DNA from: Escherichia virus TH58
Reading direction: 5' to 3' (one strand)
Sequence record: MT446423.1
Length of the DNA: 64,000 nt
Shown: positions 2,087 to 49,598 of the stretch, one piece after another
How positions within the stretch are numbered: position 1 is the stretch's first letter
How the letters are laid out: each line of letters begins with the position of its first letter
Translations under genes and position numbers: made by a program
The notes under the pieces: model-generated
What the model was told of the DNA's origin: nothing
The model's input: the letters and a program-made list of their open reading frames with translations, nothing else
The model's database searches: none

Positions 2087-3367
2087 TTCATCTATAATAA
2101 TTTTAGGCAATTTAACACCGAGTAAAACAGACAAGTCTGAACGTCCTGCCATTTTATCCATGTCCCCACCATCAATTATTCTCGCTTCTTTTTCGTCTTT
2201 TGCTACTGTGTAAGGATTTGCTGATAAAGCATATCTAACCAATAATCCGATAGACGGTTGCAAGCTTTCTGGATCAACTACAACTTTAAAAGCACCGACG
2301 TGTTCTGGGTCATCTAAATCTACTCCTTCAGTGTATGGAGCATAAAAGACAGACCCTACAATTTCTTTTTCGCCGAGATTTTCTACAACACCCACAATAA
2401 CATAATCTAATGGGCTGTTGGTATCGCAGTAAAGAGGTAATCCATTTGCCAAGAATCCATAAGCATTTTGTGAAAGATACTTGTCATCTTCTGGCTTATG
2501 TTTTAACCAACCAGAAGCAGCAAGAATAGCAGCTGCACGAGCTGAGGCTACACAAAACGTTGCAGTATAAGTTGTCTCTTTTTGAATGTGTGATACCATT
2601 TCGCATACCATTCGATATAACGAACGACCTGCTTCTGGAGCGGATGCATAGCTCAAGTCAATAAATCCAGTGTCAGTAATTCCAGTAACTTTATAGCGTT
2701 TCGATACAGTAATTAAAGACTGAAGAATATCTTTATTAATTTCATCAGCCATTTCAGTAGCAAGCAAATCTTCTAAGAAGTTAGGGGCATCAAATCCATT
2801 CGCTTCCAAATCTTGCGCTAATTCAACCGTGAGACCAGTTTTAAGTTTACGAGATTTGACTGAAGTTTGCCATTTATTAATCTGGAATCTTGCATCAGAA
2901 ATTTCGCTGCCAGAGCTTTCAAATTTGCTTGTTACCGCTGCATCTGAAAATAACCGTACCTTTAAATGAACGACTGCAATCTGAAGAGCTAATTCTAGAT
3001 CACTTTCTTGAATATCTGCAAATGGTGTATCTTCTAACACTTTATAGACGATATTATTATATTTGAAAAAATCGCCTTTATTTAGTGTGGCTTTTGATTC
3101 TTCTGTGAGCTCAGTAATTTTTTCTCGGTCTACATATCCAACTTCGCCTGCATAAGTAGCACCAGTTTTAAATGTGAATTCGTTATCTGGGTTAAGATAT
3201 TTGATACCATAAAAAGCAGCAACAGGCTGATTAGTTCTTTGTGTTGCTACAATGTCAGAATATATTAATTTAGTCGTAGCGCGAGTCAAAGCAACGAGAT
3301 TTGGGCGACCGATTGAGTTGCTGGTAGACGTTGTAGATTCACGCAATAATTTTTGGATTTTACTCAT
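2084..3367 (-). CDS. 24: head vertex protein gp24
   Basis: 427 aa, same length as T4 gp24; capsid-fold similarity to gp23; synteny. Confidence 0.9.
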   Translation of the reverse strand: MSKIQKLLRESTTSTSNSIGRPNLVALTRATTKLIYSDIVATQRTNQPVAAFYGIKYLNPDNEFTFKTGATYAGEVGYVDREKITELTEESKATLNKGDFFKYNNIVYKVLEDTPFADIQESDLELALQIAVVHLKVRLFSDAAVTSKFESSGSEISDARFQINKWQTSVKSRKLKTGLTVELAQDLEANGFDAPNFLEDLLATEMADEINKDILQSLITVSKRYKVTGITDTGFIDLSYASAPEAGRSLYRMVCEMVSHIQKETTYTATFCVASARAAAILAASGWLKHKPEDDKYLSQNAYGFLANGLPLYCDTNSPLDYVIVGVVENLGEKEIVGSVFYAPYTEGVDLDDPEHVGAFKVVVDPESLQPSIGLLVRYALSANPYTVAKDEKEARIIDGGDMDKMAGRSDLSVLLGVKLPKIIIDE

Positions 3368-3394
3368 TGCATTTTTTCCTTATGTGATATAGAT

Positions 3395-3402
3395 TATTTA
3401 TA
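3395..3402 (-). promoter_or_regulatory. late promoter TATAAATA for gene 24
   Basis: TATAAATA on minus strand about 30 nt upstream of gp24 ATG. Confidence 0.6.
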
Positions 3403-3408
3403 AAGATT

Positions 3409-3439
3409 GTTTACAACGTATTTGGTATGTGATACTATA
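3409..3439 (+). promoter_or_regulatory. early promoter cassette (GTTTAC-N17-TGTGATACTATAG)
   Basis: Member of the dispersed GTTTAC/TGnTAYWRTA family; 30 nt upstream of ORF 3469. Confidence 0.5.
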
Positions 3440-3468
3440 GACTTATCAACTACAGAGGAGTAAACAAA

Positions 3469-3795: not shown

Positions 3796-5364
3796 TTAAA
3801 TTCCTTTAACGTAGACGCGTCTAAAGTAAGCGTTCTTACCAAGGCTGTTCAGGATAGACGGCATACCGGACTGGATGCGAGCACCTGGAGCCTGCAGGGA
3901 ACTTTCAGCAAACGGGTTAACACCGATACCGTAACGAGTTTTAAAGCCCATTACCGGCTGGAAGTTCTTAGGATCGGAACCACGCAGTGGGGTAAGTGCA
4001 ACGTAAGGAGCATAGTAAATACCTGCATCCATTTCGTTAGCGCCTTTGTAACCAACGGTGAAGTAATCCTGTTTAGCATACTGGTCGATGTATACGCGGT
4101 ATTTACCGCCAAGTACACCGGCAAATACAGACTTAGTAGTGTCGGTATTAAAACCAGAAGCCAGACCCTGTGCAGCATAAGAAATACCAGTATCAACTGA
4201 AGCCAGTACGTTAACTACGTTACGGGAAGCGATAATGAAGTTACCTTCACCACGACCGGTTTGACGAGCAATTTCAACTGCTTCTTTATCAATCTGGAAC
4301 AACAGAGCTTTAAAGCTTTCACCGGCCCAACGAGCACCACGGATATCAATCGGGTCCTGGAAGTCAAATACACCAGCTTTAGAACCAACGATATTAGTCA
4401 TACCAGATTTACCAACCTGAGCGGAGTAGTTAATCCAGTCAACAACTTCACGGTTGATTTCCAGCATAATTTCAGTAGCAAGAATACCACTCAGTTCAGC
4501 ATCAGCATCCATACCGTGTACTGCACGGAGGTCTTGTGCCAATTCGATAGAGTAAGCTGCTTTCAGCTGACGAGATTTAGCTTCAATAACTTGTTTGTCG
4601 ATACGGAAGCCCATTTCGTTCCACGGGTTGTCGGTAGAACCATTGAAGCCTTCCTGAAGTTCAGCGATAGAAGTAGCCATACCTTCAGCGATTTCTACCA
4701 GTGCACCAGCTTCCATTTGTTTCTTAATTTCAGCGTCTAATTTAGTTGCATCGGTAGCGCCAGCATCAATTGTTACTACAGCGGAAGCTTGTAGATACAC
4801 AGTACCAGTGTCCTGGAAGAAGTGAGTATAGATATCACCTACAACGGTTTGTGTGCTATCAGCCAGAAGTGGGAATTTCTTAGCAGCACCCTGACCAGAG
4901 AACATCGCGTCCGGAGCATACATCGGATGGAAAGCTTCTTTAGCGTCAGCAGCGATAGGGTCTTTACCATATACTGCACGGAGAGCAAATACCTGACCGG
5001 TAGGGCTGTTCATAGGCTGAACACCACAAATATCAAAAGCGATCAGATTAGGAATAGCACGACGAACCATACCCATAACTGCTGGCCCAATTTGGGTTAC
5101 TGCACCAGAGGTTTGACCTGCTGCGATGTTCTGAGCATTATAACCATGGTCCCCACCAATTTCAGCTTCGGTCAAGAAAGAACCAAATGCCTGAGCGATT
5201 TTCTCGTCTTTATATTCAGGGGATACTTCGAAATCTTTTTCCTGGTTTTCGAAGATTTTAGCGATAATAGCCTGCTTGCTATTAGCGATTTCCGGCAGGC
5301 CTTCACCTTCCAGCAGTTCTTTCCATTTGTCTACGAGCTGAGCTTTAGTTTTGATAGTAGTCAT
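3796..5364 (-). CDS. 23: major capsid protein gp23
   Basis: 522 aa; N-terminus MTTIKTKAQLVDKWKELLEGEGLPEIANSKQAIIAKIFENQEKDFEVSPEY matches T4 gp23. Confidence 0.95.
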   Translation of the reverse strand: MTTIKTKAQLVDKWKELLEGEGLPEIANSKQAIIAKIFENQEKDFEVSPEYKDEKIAQAFGSFLTEAEIGGDHGYNAQNIAAGQTSGAVTQIGPAVMGMVRRAIPNLIAFDICGVQPMNSPTGQVFALRAVYGKDPIAADAKEAFHPMYAPDAMFSGQGAAKKFPLLADSTQTVVGDIYTHFFQDTGTVYLQASAVVTIDAGATDATKLDAEIKKQMEAGALVEIAEGMATSIAELQEGFNGSTDNPWNEMGFRIDKQVIEAKSRQLKAAYSIELAQDLRAVHGMDADAELSGILATEIMLEINREVVDWINYSAQVGKSGMTNIVGSKAGVFDFQDPIDIRGARWAGESFKALLFQIDKEAVEIARQTGRGEGNFIIASRNVVNVLASVDTGISYAAQGLASGFNTDTTKSVFAGVLGGKYRVYIDQYAKQDYFTVGYKGANEMDAGIYYAPYVALTPLRGSDPKNFQPVMGFKTRYGIGVNPFAESSLQAPGARIQSGMPSILNSLGKNAYFRRVYVKGI

Positions 5365-45864: not shown

Positions 45865-46312
45865 GAAAAATAAAGTGAAAGAACTATCAGCCGGTATTAT
45901 TTTCCTTACCGAAGATAAAGAATTATTCATGGGGCGTGTAACTGGTTCTCGTCCTAAAGGTTCTTTAGCTCATCGGTGGGATATTCCTAAAGGTCATGTC
46001 GAGCCCGGCGAATCTCCTATTGAAGCCGCTATTCGTGAATGCGAAGAAGAAACTGGGTTTACACAATATGACCCTGCCTTCCTGAAAGACCTAGGTGAAC
46101 ATCGTTACTCAGACAATAAGAATATTCATCTGTTCCTATATACCATCCCTGTAGAGCACGAGCAATTCAGAAACAGTGTTTGTAATTCCTATCATACGTT
46201 CCCAGATGGTCGACAGATTCCTGAATTTGATGCATTCGCTTTAATTAAACCTTCTCAATGGGAATATGTAATGGGCAAATCATTATATAAGGTGCTCACT
46301 ACCATCCTATAA
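45854..46312 (+). CDS. nudE: Nudix hydrolase
   Basis: Nudix box GHVEPGESPIEAAIRECEEETGF; directly upstream of lysozyme e as T4 nudE. Confidence 0.8.
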   Translation: MMSKKNKVKELSAGIIFLTEDKELFMGRVTGSRPKGSLAHRWDIPKGHVEPGESPIEAAIRECEEETGFTQYDPAFLKDLGEHRYSDNKNIHLFLYTIPVEHEQFRNSVCNSYHTFPDGRQIPEFDAFALIKPSQWEYVMGKSLYKVLTTIL

Positions 46313-46320
46313 GTAATAAA

Positions 46321-46344
46321 TACCTCCTATAAACGTGGGAGGTA
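46321..46344 (+). promoter_or_regulatory. RBS-sequestering hairpin (TACCTCC / GGAGGTA) upstream of e, with TATAAA in loop
   Basis: 7-bp inverted repeat whose 3' arm contains the GGGAGG Shine-Dalgarno of e. Confidence 0.5.
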
Positions 46345-46346
46345 TT

Positions 46347-46835
46347 ATGAATATATTTGAAATGCTTCGTAATGACGAAGGTCTTAGACTGTCTTTATAC
46401 AAAGACACTGAAGGCTTTTGGACGATTGGCATAGGTCATTTAGTAACAAAGAACCCGTCTTTAGCCGTAGCTAAAGCTGAACTTGACAGAATGATCGGAC
46501 GTAAATGCAATGGTACAATTACCCTTGATGAGGCTGAAAAGCTATTTAATGAAGACGTTGATAAAGCCGTTCGCGGAATCTTGGGTAATGCTAAACTTAA
46601 ACCGGTATATGATTCTTTAGATGCAGTTCGTCGATGTGCATTGGTCAATATGGTCTTCCAAATGGGTGTAGCAGGCGTCGCTGGTTTTACTAATTCTCTT
46701 CGTATGCTTCAACAGAAACGTTGGGACGAAGCGGCAGTAAATCTAGCCCAATCTAAATGGTATCGTCAGACACCTAATCGCGCGAAACGCGTAATCTCAA
46801 CATTTAAAACAGGAACTTGGAAAGCGTATATATGA
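46347..46835 (+). CDS. e: endolysin (T4 lysozyme)
   Basis: N-terminus [32 protein letters not shown] matches T4 lysozyme; 162 aa. Confidence 0.9.
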
Positions 46836-47113
46836 AAACATATAGTGAATTTTTATCAGAATCTATTCTTAACGAAGCTACTGACACATTTGCAACTAAG
46901 CTAGGTGCAGCTTTGGTTGAAGCTGAAAGTCTATTAGCACGTATTTCTGAACTTGCTAGTAAGATAGATACTCGCAAATTTGAGCGCACCAGTGATATCG
47001 TTAAGCTTGAAGCCTTGTTGCGTATGTGCGATAAACCGGAAGAAATCGCTAAGAACGGCTCGCTGATGAAACAACGTCTTGAAAAATATATTTCAGGCGC
47101 TTCAGAAAAATAG
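46832..47113 (+). CDS. internal protein with capsid-targeting sequence
   Basis: N-terminus [10 protein letters not shown]; ATG overlaps e stop (ATGA). Confidence 0.55.
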
Positions 47114-47114
47114 T

Positions 47115-47145
47115 GTTTACTTCCTCCAAGGACTTTGATACTATA
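47115..47145 (+). promoter_or_regulatory. early promoter cassette with inverted repeat masking the denV RBS
   Basis: GTTTAC 47115-47120, TGATACTATA 47136-47145; TCCTCCAAG (47122-47130) pairs with CTTGGAGGA (47159-47167). Confidence 0.5.
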
Positions 47146-47171
47146 CATTCATCAACTACTTGGAGGAAATT

Positions 47172-47585
47172 ATGACTCGTATCAATTTAACACTTGTTTC
47201 TGAACTGTCCGACCAACATCTTATGGCTGAGTATCGTGAATTACCACGCGTATTTGGTGCAGTCCGTAAACATGTTCAAAACGGTAAATGTGTAAAGGAT
47301 TTTAAAATCTCCCCGACATTTATCTTAGGCACAGGTCATGTAACATTCTTTTACGACAAACTCGAATTTTTACGTTTACGTCAAATCGAGCTAATCGCTG
47401 AATGCTTGAAACGTGGTTTCAAAATCAAGGACACGACTGTCCAAGATATTTCCGACATCCCTGCCGAATTTCGTAATAATTATGTCCCGACCGAAGCGTC
47501 CATTGCGATAAGTCAAGCTCGTTTAGATGAAAAAATTGCTCAACGTCCTACTTGGTACAAATACTATGGTAAATCAATTTACTAA
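47172..47585 (+). CDS. denV: endonuclease V (pyrimidine-dimer DNA glycosylase)
   Basis: N-terminus [31 protein letters not shown] and C-terminus [14 protein letters not shown] as T4 DenV. Confidence 0.9.
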
Positions 47586-47616
47586 GGAAAAAGGTTGCGA
47601 TGGTAAAGCTTAAACA

Positions 47617-47646
47617 GTTTACGCTTAAGTATTAATATGGTATAAT
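47617..47646 (+). promoter_or_regulatory. early promoter (GTTTAC-N18-TATAAT)
   Basis: Upstream of internal-protein gene 47677. Confidence 0.5.
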
Positions 47647-47676
47647 TACTCTATCAAAACAAACAAGGAAACAAAA

Positions 47677-47979
47677 ATGAAAACATATCAAGAATTTATT
47701 ACTGAAGCGCGAGTGAGTGCAGGTAAATTAGAAGCCGCTATAAATAAAAAGGCCTATTCATTTCACGATTTGTCCGATAAAGACCGTAAGAAACTTGTAA
47801 GCCTTTATATTGACAAAGAGCGTATTCTCGCTCTTCCTGGCGCTAATGAAGGTAAACAGGCCAAGCCTTTGAATGCTGTCGAAAAGAAAATTGATAACTT
47901 TGCTTCTAAATTCGGTATGTCTATGGATGACCTTCAGCAAGCGGCTATCGAAGCAGCTAAAGTAATTAAAGGTAAATAA
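47677..47979 (+). CDS. internal protein with capsid-targeting sequence
   Basis: N-terminus MKTYQEFITEARV; 100 aa. Confidence 0.55.
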   Translation: MKTYQEFITEARVSAGKLEAAINKKAYSFHDLSDKDRKKLVSLYIDKERILALPGANEGKQAKPLNAVEKKIDNFASKFGMSMDDLQQAAIEAAKVIKGK

Positions 47980-47981
47980 CA

Positions 47982-48010
47982 GTTTACTTTCTCCTAGAAT
48001 TGTGATAGTA
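47982..48010 (+). promoter_or_regulatory. early promoter cassette (GTTTAC ... TGTGATAGTA)
   Basis: Family member upstream of the denV-remnant ORF. Confidence 0.45.
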
Positions 48011-48058
48011 TATTCATAATTACTTGGATGGGTAAAATGACTCAATGAAAAAATTTTA

Positions 48059-48241
48059 ATGAAGCCACACTGGTATAAGTATTACGGCAAAAATATTTAC
48101 ATTCAAATAACATGGGAACAACCTGGACCTCATGATTCTATGAGGGATTCCCGCCAACCTGTAATAAGGTCGAGCCCAAGTGCGGTAATGGGTAAATACA
48201 GAAATGGACAATTCATGTGCCATGGAATGGCCCAAACCTAG
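48059..48241 (+). pseudogene. ghost of a denV 3' end (PHWYKYYGKNIY) fused to a short ORF
   Basis: Codons 3-14 (48065-48100) duplicate the denV C-terminus with many synonymous changes. Confidence 0.4.
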
Positions 48242-48245
48242 AGAG
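48154..48245 (+). repeat. direct repeat copy A (about 92 bp) upstream of the internal-protein gene
   Basis: CCAACCTGTAATAAGGTCGAGC...GCGGTAATGGG...ATGTGCCATGGAATGGCCCAAACCT repeated at 48651-48745. Confidence 0.6.
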
Positions 48246-48251
48246 AACAAA

Positions 48252-48581
48252 ATGAAAACATATCAAGAGTTTATCACTGAAGTTACATTATCTGCGGAAC
48301 AGAAAGCTGCTATCGAAGAAGCTAAAAATCCCAAAGTAACATATAAAGTAAATAGTAAAGGCGTTTTTGATGACTTGGTTCAAGACCCTGAATTGAAAAA
48401 AGCTCTTTCTAAAACTAATGCGTACTTTGCTCCTAAATTTAACACAGCCGGCGTACTTATTGGATTGGATGTATTCAACTCTAAAGGTGTTCTATCTAGT
48501 GCCTTTGGTTATGCCGCTAACAAAATTACCAAAGCCGCATGGGAATCCAATACCAAACAAGCTCAAAAGCCTAGAGTATAA
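48252..48581 (+). CDS. internal protein with capsid-targeting sequence
   Basis: N-terminus MKTYQEFITEVTL; 109 aa; flanked by direct repeats. Confidence 0.55.
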   Translation: MKTYQEFITEVTLSAEQKAAIEEAKNPKVTYKVNSKGVFDDLVQDPELKKALSKTNAYFAPKFNTAGVLIGLDVFNSKGVLSSAFGYAANKITKAAWESNTKQAQKPRV

Positions 48582-48650
48582 TTCTTGCCTAATAAAGGGA
48601 AACGCAACCTCTCCTTATGAACGTCGAGTCCTCTAAGTGATGTACCTTTT

Positions 48651-48745
48651 CCAACCTGTAATAAGGTCGAGCGCAATGCGGTAATGGGTTTACATAGCGA
48701 GTCGAAGGACCTAACATGTGCCACGGAATGGCCCAAACCTTAAGA
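48651..48745 (+). repeat. direct repeat copy B (decayed, 1-nt indel versus A)
   Basis: See copy A. Confidence 0.6.
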
Positions 48746-48753
48746 GAAATAAT

Positions 48754-49293
48754 ATGAGAACATTTTTAACTGGACCTTATCTATCCCTGATGAATGCTTT
48801 TACACACCATTCTGATGCTAGAGTAGAAGAAATTTGTAAGAACGGTTATGTCCCGCCGTTTGAAGACGTACTCAAGCAGTACTGTACACTTCGTTTAGAC
48901 GGCGGCCGACAATCAGGTAAATCAATTGCTGTGACTAACTTTGCTGCTAATTGGCTGTATGACGGTGGAACAGTTATTGTTCTTTCTAATACTTCAGCTT
49001 ATTCTAAAATTTCTGCCTGCAACATTAAAAAAGAATTTTCTCGTTATTCTAGCGATGATATTCGATTCCGTTTATTTACTGATTCTGTCCGTAGTTTTAT
49101 TGGCAATGAAGGTTCTAAATTCCGTGGATTAACGCTTTCTCGTATTCTGTATATAATTGACGAGCCTATTAAAGCTCCTGATATGGATAAGATTTACAAT
49201 GTCCATATTAAATCAGTACAGCACTGCTGCAAAAGCAAATATTGCATCGGCGGTAATGCTCGTCCTCAATTTTTTGTGATTGGAATGCAATGA
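48754..49293 (+). CDS. small P-loop NTPase (T4 vs.8 position)
   Basis: Walker A GGRQSGKS and Walker B LYIIDE; about 179 aa. Confidence 0.5.
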   Translation: MRTFLTGPYLSLMNAFTHHSDARVEEICKNGYVPPFEDVLKQYCTLRLDGGRQSGKSIAVTNFAANWLYDGGTVIVLSNTSAYSKISACNIKKEFSRYSSDDIRFRLFTDSVRSFIGNEGSKFRGLTLSRILYIIDEPIKAPDMDKIYNVHIKSVQHCCKSKYCIGGNARPQFFVIGMQ

Positions 49294-49598
49294 TGACAAC
49301 TATTGAAGTTTTTGAATATTGTTATAATAGCCCAGTATGCAATAAAAGGGCCCTTGTAGAAAATTACGAGATTTACCATTTTAAACCTAAACGATATCGT
49401 TTGACTAAAGGCCCGTTCGCAGGGCAGCAGGTTCTTTGTACTGCTCCTAATGAGCGGTTGATGACTAGTATTCCGCATTTCAAAATGGAATTTATTGATG
49501 GGCCATTTAAGGGATTAATCACTCAAAGTTTAATGGCGTTTAATTCCGACCCATTTTTGATTAAAGAAAAAACTTGGATAAATTTATTTTCTAATTGA
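49290..49598 (+). CDS. hypothetical protein (vs.7 position)
   Basis: 102 aa, overlaps upstream stop. Confidence 0.4.
   Translation: MMTTIEVFEYCYNSPVCNKRALVENYEIYHFKPKRYRLTKGPFAGQQVLCTAPNERLMTSIPHFKMEFIDGPFKGLITQSLMAFNSDPFLIKEKTWINLFSN

Follow-up and report, generated by a model that had tools for sequence, protein, structure and literature searches.

A probable wreck of a second, foreign denV gene beside ipII in the RB69-like phage TH58

The 64,000-nucleotide stretch of Escherichia virus TH58 considered here in its entirety as "the window" (sequence record MT446423.1) carries, downstream of an intact denV gene for endonuclease V, the remains of another. This ghost (47982-48106) keeps the early promoter, the ribosome-binding site, the start ATGACTC and the last 20 codons of a second denV allele, here called class B, and it lies within an imported block of ~600 bp (47665-48261) that also comprises the internal-protein gene ipII and a conserved non-coding element. 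With a probability of roughly 0.87, what is left here is a second, foreign class-B denV that was imported with ipII in a Tequatrovirus block and then gutted. The process is ordinary, well-documented modular exchange and pseudogene decay in the internal-protein (ip) locus of T-even phages, a hypervariable region.

The window belongs to an RB69-like T-even phage of the genus Mosigvirus, and the phage that matches it best in the collection searched is Escherichia phage SF, also a Mosigvirus (97.7% over 46800-48800). On the plus strand, which carries all features given below with window coordinates, the order is nudE, e, an ip gene, denV, an ipII homologue, the ghost, another ip gene and vs.8. A working denV of its own with e and one ip gene directly before it is an arrangement as in RB69, whose order (e-ip-denV-ip-ip-ip-vs.8) includes neither ipII nor a second denV sequence or ghost. 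T4 has the order e-ipIII-ipII-denV-vs.8, and the ghost therefore occupies the canonical T4 slot for denV; in T4, UGKSEcP1, ZCEC14 and TB004, too, denV or its remnant stands between ipII on one side and the element and vs.8 on the other.

The intact gene and the ghost

The resident denV (47172-47585, 137 aa) is of class A, the RB69/T4 type. It matches the Pfam family Pyr_excise (PF03013, E=3e-14), its product is identical to T4 DenV at 124 of 138 residues, and it lies within a stretch that is 98% identical to RB69. Codons 39-40 (47286-47291) include Cys40 (NGKCVKDF) at a place where T4, RB69 and JS09 have Arg (NGKRV.DF). A preliminary description of the window had proposed that a second copy of the end of this gene follows an internal-protein gene with its own promoter. 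The copy is real: codons 48065-48100 (CCA CAC TGG TAT AAG TAT TAC GGC AAA AAT ATT TAC) read PHWYKYYGKNIY, which agrees with the resident end at 10/12 amino acids and 24/36 nucleotides. Eight codons differ, six of them synonymously and two nonsynonymously, in keeping with the many synonymous differences described at the outset. The intervening gene is the ipII homologue at 47677-47979, with a promoter-like match at 47618-47646. In a test against chance, the whole 64-kb window with denV removed was shuffled 100 times, translated in six frames and searched for the best 12-residue match to the resident end; the maxima were 6 identities in 58 runs, 5 in 39, 7 in two and 8 in one, never 10, so that the 12-codon match is significant against a shuffled background.

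The description of the copy as a 3' end holds for the tail but is incomplete. To judge from its sequence, the ghost is an internally deleted whole gene and not a stray 3' end, because denV homology, as found by direct-repeat search and alignment, also covers 47982-48043 with the promoter, the Shine-Dalgarno (SD) sequence and ATGACTC. The 5' region (47982-48036) resembles the sequence upstream of ZCEC14 denV. It holds an early promoter (GTTTAC at 47982-47987, -10 at about 48006-48011), to which a sequence annotated in fPS-90 as "predicted early promoter" is identical, and a mutated SD sequence, GGATGGG at 48026-48032, in which the window and JS09 have GGAT and SF, TU01 and BYEP01 have GGAG. The start ATGACTC (48037-48043) contains the deletion junction GACTC (48039-48043), and the frame that it opens reads M-T-Q-stop (48037-48048). 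The 3' remnant (48044-48106), delimited by alignment with full-length alleles, carries the last 20 codons, NEKILMKPHWYKYYGKNIYI, at 48044-48103, stranded out of the frame of the start codon; the tail is followed by CAA, where fPS-90 and ZCEC14 carry the stop TAA. GACTCG occurs at nucleotide 3 and nucleotide 350 of the 417-nt class-B allele, and the ghost equals this allele minus the 347 nt between them.

The 347-nt deletion shifts the frame and removes codons 3-118. The N-terminal catalytic region of T4 endonuclease V, formed by the Thr2 amine, Arg3, Arg22, Glu23 and Arg26, is thereby reduced in the ghost to Met1-Thr2. With codons 3-118 missing, the frame shifted and the SD sequence mutated, the ghost is predicted to be incapable of making DenV enzyme and to be a remnant without repair function. 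It has no uninterrupted Pyr_excise open reading frame (ORF) of ~138 aa, and the 60-aa ORF at 48059-48241 gave no Pfam hit, where the resident gene and the fPS-90 allele match PF03013 with E about 1e-13. The marks of a denV pseudogene are all present: homology on both sides of a defined deletion, a conserved position, and relaxed selection in the lineage, visible as four distinct deletions, the nonsense codon of SF, the SD mutation and replacements of Arg3 or Arg22 in JS09 and TB004.

Origin of the ghost in a mosaic block

Full-length class-B denV genes were read in fPS-90 (L005 1256-1672), ZCEC14 (L010 1501-1917, ending in LMKPHWYKYYGKNIYI and a stop), UGKSEcP1 (L004 1263-1814) and BYEP01 (L086 905-1321). 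These alleles, which end in QQRLDEKILMKPHWYKYYGKNIYI, bridge both pieces of the ghost, and that of fPS-90, when scanned, gives a Pfam Pyr_excise match. The class-B protein shares 103/138 residues (about 75%) with the resident DenV and 106/138 with T4 DenV, and each class is found as the sole denV in other genomes. The 62-nt 5' part of the ghost, including ATGACTC, agrees with ZCEC14 at 60/62 positions vs 36/62 for the resident denV, and the 65-nt 3' part agrees with ZCEC14 and UGKSEcP1 at 63-64/65 vs 37/65. Among 283 matching phage records, about 265 match the 3' remnant only, at 80-95% identity. The initial view that the copy is no recent local duplication and comes from a diverged denV imported with the neighbouring cassette has thus proved essentially right: denV alleles resembling the ghost exist, the ghost is nearly identical to them and distant from the resident gene, and the ghost and ipII are both Tequatrovirus-like in an RB69-like backbone.

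The nearest relative of the window switches sharply at both borders of the block. The sequence from 46000 to 47592 is 98% identical to RB69 and 70-79% to Tequatrovirus phages; from 47665 to 48043 the identity is 97.4% to UGKSEcP1, 98.7% to TB004 and 98.2% to ZCEC14, and from 48036 to 48261 it is 94-96% to the same three; from 48245 to 49500 it is again 97% to RB69 and 82-86% to Tequatrovirus phages. Matches to RB69 within 47592-48245 are limited to the Ip10 promoter and leader (47602-47706, 94%), short repeats of ip leaders and the RB69 copy of the element, which matches weakly (79%). The left crossover lies at the ipII start codon and the capsid-targeting codons, at about 47677-47690. Up to the ATG the sequence is that of the RB69 Ip10 promoter and leader, and ipII sequence takes over from the first codons, which implies a crossover that used the capsid-targeting codons common to all ip genes. 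At the right-hand junction, BLAST pieces 48036-48261 (UGKSEcP1, 96%) and 48245-49500 (RB69, 97%) overlap solely at 48245-48261 (AACAAAATGAAAACATA), and T4-type sequence that normally enters vs.8 (ATGAGAACAT...) meets an RB69 ip gene (ATGAAAACAT...). The crossover here would have occurred in 15-17 nt of near-identity formed by the ribosome site and the ATGA(A/G)AACAT start common to vs.8 and ip genes. The ghost had been thought to mark the insertion junction itself; it is interior to the block, and the crossovers lie on either side of it.

No seg, mob or HNH gene was found in or near the block among all ORFs of 45.8-49.3 kb, which are accounted for by nudE, e, ip, denV, ipII, ip and vs.8. Import driven by a homing endonuclease was therefore rejected.

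The most economical course of events would be the recombination of a ~600-bp block of Tequatrovirus origin into the internal-protein locus of a Mosigvirus backbone, bringing ipII, the diverged class-B denV and the element that precedes vs.8. Through the left crossover in the leader codons, ipII (47677-47979) would have come to stand behind an RB69-type early promoter and leader (47618-47676), which is identical to the leader of RB69 ORF124 (Ip10) up to the ATG, unlike Tequatrovirus ipII leaders, and contains a sigma-70-like promoter match (47618-47646, score 10/12). The gene itself is 97.4% identical to that of UGKSEcP1, 98.7% to that of TB004 and 92.8% (DNA) to T4 ipII. T4 Ip2 is an injected inhibitor of the GmrSD type IV restriction enzyme of ECOR21 (PMC12373910). 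It is plausible, and the simplest reading, that ipII was the selected cargo and class-B denV a hitch-hiker, which, as a redundant passenger beside the resident gene, would have been inactivated by the frame-shifting 347-nt deletion between GACTC(G) direct repeats.

Hundreds of Tequatrovirus records carry the block in the same gene order, RB69 lacks it, and some Mosigvirus genomes have it. Because of this synteny, the many records that match the class-B 3' end only and the absence in RB69, the block probably originated in Tequatrovirus and was transferred from there. The deletion may have come before or after the entry of the block into the Mosigvirus backbone.

Decay of the second copy in related phages

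The relatives of the window form a series of losses at the same place. The window-type deletion of 347 nt between GACTC(G) repeats has a junction shared by 17 records, and SF combines it with a nonsense change, TAC to TAA. A deletion of 292 nt between GGCAAA repeats is present in six records, with JS09, TU01, pEK20, AV110 and ESCO47 among them; it keeps denV codons 1-35 and the last 7 codons, and in JS09 the product, JS09_060, is annotated as a DenV fragment. The second denV copy of TB004 is deleted between AATGG repeats, promoter and remnant are wholly lost between AAATAACA repeats in NHEP36, ECO07P1 and CJY920, and two IMG/VR contigs retain merely TATTTACATTCAAATAA. Arg3 or Arg22, both conserved in all intact alleles read, is replaced in JS09 and TB004. 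The reciprocal loss has taken place in ZCEC14, where class B after ipII is intact and class A, at the place of the RB69 gene, ends prematurely at codon 38 (L010 351-491) through a deletion running into the downstream promoter. In the T2 record, promoter and element are present with no denV between e and vs.8.

Every deletion in the series is flanked by direct repeats of 5-8 nt, which points to slippage or illegitimate recombination as the probable origin. As the JS09-type and the window-type deletions each retain sequence that is missing from the other, both types must descend from an intact second copy. A further constraint comes from BYEP01, whose backbone is that of a Tequatrovirus (in e it shares 72% identity with the window) and whose order is e, intact class-B denV, Ip10, ipII, ghost, element and vs.8. 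Window positions 47665-48261 align with it as a single piece of 597 bp at 96.65% identity, junction included. The identical junction implies that an already gutted cassette moved between backbones together with ipII.

Alternative explanations

Several points weigh against import of a Tequatrovirus block followed by decay. The same junction on two backbones could reflect a recurrent deletion at a 6-nt repeat; the uninterrupted identity to BYEP01 over the 597 bp speaks against this. The retention of the promoter in three of the four deletion variants could hint at selection instead of pure chance. The direction of transfer is read from the distribution of the block and not from a rooted phylogeny, the right crossover is based on just 15-17 nt of similarity, and the role of ipII as cargo is deduced for a gene that is 92.8% identical to T4 ipII. 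In addition, JD18 has an ip gene after the element, and the donor might already have carried one.

The alternative that survives best, improbable as it is, holds that the remnant was kept for a function, either as a promoter for the downstream element, ip gene and vs.8 or as a new small protein encoded by the 60-aa ORF. The ghost promoter is kept in the window type, the JS09 type and TB004; the ORF, which joins a DenV tail to a read-through of the element, has 60 open codons, and UGKSEcP1 has an equal read-through as a DenV of 183 aa. Against retention for a function, NHEP36, ECO07P1 and CJY920 have wholly lost promoter and remnant and carry the same downstream genes. The protein version has to contend with the stop codon inside the ORF in SF, an ATG without an SD sequence (AAAAATTTTAATG), the lack of a Pfam match and, in RB69-type copies, a 1-nt indel that interrupts the frame through the element, which is thus not conserved as a protein.

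Less probable still is that the phage's own denV was duplicated in tandem long ago and that the downstream copy has been decaying where it lies, with nothing imported. This had been offered in the preliminary description as a second option, and it is right about the decay and wrong about the origin. Two denV-like sequences with similar promoters and SD sequences do lie on the same strand at a distance of 865 bp, and the downstream copy is clearly decaying. However, the identity of the ghost is 96-97% to Tequatrovirus class-B alleles vs about 57% (ungapped) to the resident denV; the neighbouring ipII and element share this foreign affinity between RB69-like flanks; RB69 has no trace of a second copy; and the two classes, about 75% identical in protein, each serve as the sole denV elsewhere. 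A chance resemblance of 12 codons without homology, for which only the shortness of the match and an unimpressive nucleotide identity can be cited, was rejected as next to impossible, since no shuffle reached 10/12, homology reaches the promoter, SD sequence, start and 20 codons, and full-length alleles bridge the gap.

The conserved element beside the ghost

The window carries two copies of the non-coding element. The T4-type copy in the imported block (48115-48240) is 96% identical to those of T4, fPS-90 and UGKSEcP1 and matches a covariance model at 48115-48196 with 95 bits; the resident RB69-type copy (48590/48596-48742), recognised through direct repeats, follows the next ip gene and gives a model match at 48601-48692. 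The element is ~130-150 nt long, and further copies lie in T4 (L008, about 4816-4945, minus strand), FV3 (L011 1473-1547) and a third phage type (L085 7907-7979). It is common to Tevenvirinae (T4, T2, RB69, JS98-like and Klebsiella phages), rV5-like Vequintavirinae (FV3) and the phage type of L085. The T4-type layout is P1-P2-P1'-CCAA-ACCUGUAAUAAGGU-CGAGC-N5-6-GCGGUAAUGGG, followed by a 3' domain that ends in GCCAnGGAAUGGCCC. The core CCUGUAAUAAGGUCGAGC-N5-6-GCGGUAAUGGG is nearly invariant across phage groups, and CCTGTAATAAGGTCGAGC-N5-6-GCGGTAA-GGG is invariant in 29 aligned copies from T4, T2, RB69, JD18 and many IMG/VR contigs. Between the types, all frames are interrupted by indels whose lengths are not multiples of three, and the element is therefore not conserved as a protein.

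Evidence for an RNA structure comes from the 5' domain. In independent minimum-free-energy folds, helices P1 and P2 are built from entirely different sequences in each phage group: GGGAA/UUCCC and CCUCAU/AUGAGG in T4, GGGAG/CUCCC and CCUCA/UGAGG in L031, GGGG/CCCC and CACAU/AUGUG in FV3, GGAAC/GUUCC and CUACG/CGUAG in L035, and GGC/GCC and CACC/GGUG in L085. In an alignment of 27 matches fitted to the model, and thereby biased towards the structure, all seven P1/P2 pairs have changed on both sides, and 91% of cells pair vs 78.5% in shuffles (0/500) and 22-64% when the strands are slid. An alignment of 17 RB69-type copies made by MAFFT only has 92.7% paired vs 21-47% slid, with few compensatory events. 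Single-sequence folding found neither strand of either copy more stable than shuffles (z -0.14 to +2.3), so that thermodynamics alone gives the structure no support. RNAalifold on the mixed alignment gave a poor consensus, since MAFFT misaligns the 5' domains of the T4 and RB69 types. Helices P4 and P5 of the 3' domain are not claimed, P4 having no compensatory change and P5 one at its terminal pair only, and T4-type rows contain U-to-C changes without a compensating partner in candidate helices of this domain. A pairing GCCC...GGGU around GCGGUAA was rejected as it is broken in RB69-type and rV5-type copies. Two conserved GGA motifs occur in the element, one of them in the loop of a GCCA-nGGAA-UGGC hairpin; that this loop might resemble a CsrA site is an idea only.

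Searches for relatives of the element returned little. There was no significant Rfam 15 match at the element in window 44-52 kb, FV3, JD18 or L085 (tested at E<=1), the L085 copy showing a chance-level overlap with the Pseudomonas rnk leader (26.9 bits vs a gathering score of 55 bits, E=0.064). A scan for the core in 185,579 bacterial and archaeal genomes gave 42 matches with dissimilar flanks vs about 87 estimated for chance, which means that there is no cellular homologue at this stringency. A tRNA search called no tRNA at the element, and literature searches on vs.8/denV and on T4 non-coding RNAs returned nothing relevant.

The surroundings of the element differ between phages. It is not just a vs.8 leader, as ORF068 of FV3, downstream of the rV5-like element, is not homologous to Vs.8. 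In rV5-like phages it lies about 570 nt upstream of a tRNA cluster, and in L085 it follows tRNA-Pro and ends at an intrinsic terminator. It would act as a stand-alone small RNA in L085, given this terminator, and in T-even phages it might be cut from, or act within, an early polycistronic RNA upstream of vs.8. JS09 (L002, about 3300-3445) has one chimeric element, T4-type and then with an RB69-type 3' flank, and no intervening ip gene, as would result if the two copies of the window had recombined. In TB004 (L042, about 880-960) a decayed partial copy, TAATAAAGCCGAGTTCGAACCCGGTAATAGATAAATATAG..., is found between an ipIII-like gene and ipII and suggests that the element may earlier have been duplicated with ip cassettes. 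Annotated genes run through the element in T4, where vs.8 (L008 4254-4913, minus strand) has 40 extra N-terminal residues and yields a Vs.8 of 219 aa, and in UGKSEcP1, where denV is annotated with 183 aa. Both are probably artefacts of annotation or stop loss, that of UGKSEcP1 alternatively a stop loss through deletion of an ip gene. From these comparisons the element is credible as a candidate RNA and as a patch of homology for the exchange of cassettes. The fuller proposal, tentative and given slightly less than an even chance, is that it may represent an undescribed structured-RNA family that also serves as a patch for exchange and excision of ip genes and denV, its imported copy being transcribed from the ghost promoter.

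Neighbouring genes

The gene e (46347-46835) is followed by the ip gene directly before denV (46832-47113). Between the resident denV and the promoter of ipII lies a second, smaller ghost (47586-47615), the remnant of an ip gene like RB69 ORF125c identified by alignment with RB69, JS09 and NHEP36. It consists of GGAAAAA, GGTTGCGATGGTAAAG and CTTAAAC, pieces of the 261-nt RB69 gene joined via two deletions; the gene is intact in RB69 and NHEP36 and has another internal deletion in JS09. An ip gene like RB69 ORF123c (48252-48581), part of the RB69-like stretch that begins at 48245, lies between the two copies of the element and begins with the capsid-targeting leader MKTYQEFITE. The vs.8 homologue (48754-49293, 179 aa), the usual successor of denV or the element, has no Pfam hit in its product. 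Vs.8 contains a P-loop-like motif, GGRQSGKS, and is conserved across genera, usually with the element upstream.

Comparison with known systems

The locus is a fully resolved case of T-even accessory-locus evolution in which an anti-restriction gene, ipII, would have crossed a genus boundary through a few leader codons, dragging along a redundant repair gene that was eroded by short-repeat deletions, with four independent states and one reciprocal loss in relatives. It is also of use for annotation, as pipelines do not agree on such remnants: JS09 has an "endonuclease V" fragment, SF no feature at all, UGKSEcP1 a DenV of 183 aa and T4 a Vs.8 of 219 aa. In the closest relatives (SF, PHB12, HX01 and others) the window-type remnant carries no annotation. 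More novel than the ghost is the adjacent element as a candidate new phage RNA.

The closest counterpart of the ghost is JS09_060 (YP_009037383.1), the truncated "DenV: Endonuclease V" of vB_EcoM_JS09. It is the same second, class-B copy, placed after ipII and ahead of the element and vs.8, also in a Mosigvirus backbone, and it too has been inactivated by an internal deletion. It differs in the repeats used, GGCAAA, and JS09, unlike the window, has no ORF123c-like ip gene and a single chimeric element.

Repoila et al. are said to have described the polymorphic internal-protein (IP) loci of T-even phages in 1994, and the ip genes of the window share a conserved leader, as in those loci. Shuffling of ip loci between T-even phages is documented (PMC4122927, which cites Repoila 1994; PMC2839356; PMC3012670), and early-gene cassettes are exchanged via short conserved flanks, with direct repeats that flank a cassette being able to excise it (PMC2839356; PMC4122927). 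PeSL (promoter-plus-stem-loop) shuffling (Arbiol et al. 2010; Comeau et al. 2014) resembles the history proposed for the block in that related phages exchange, gain and lose small early-gene cassettes. The block does not have the form of a PeSL cassette (Arbiol 2010), as its left crossover lies downstream of the promoter, at capsid-targeting codons, and its right one at a ribosome-binding site and ATG instead of a promoter-plus-stem-loop motif; moreover, the repeated flanking unit in the window is the ~130-150-nt element with RNA-like covariation. A difference from both polymorphic IP loci and PeSL cassettes is the fate of denV, which is not an ip gene but travelled with the cassette and decayed afterwards.

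With its first 2 and last 20 codons recognisably DenV, the ghost descends from the family of T4 endonuclease V (DenV, PF03013). Phage T2 is classically regarded as lacking the v function. T2 resembles the window in showing that denV is dispensable and has been repeatedly lost in T-even phages, but it differs in having neither a recognisable coding remnant in the denV slot nor a compensating second copy.

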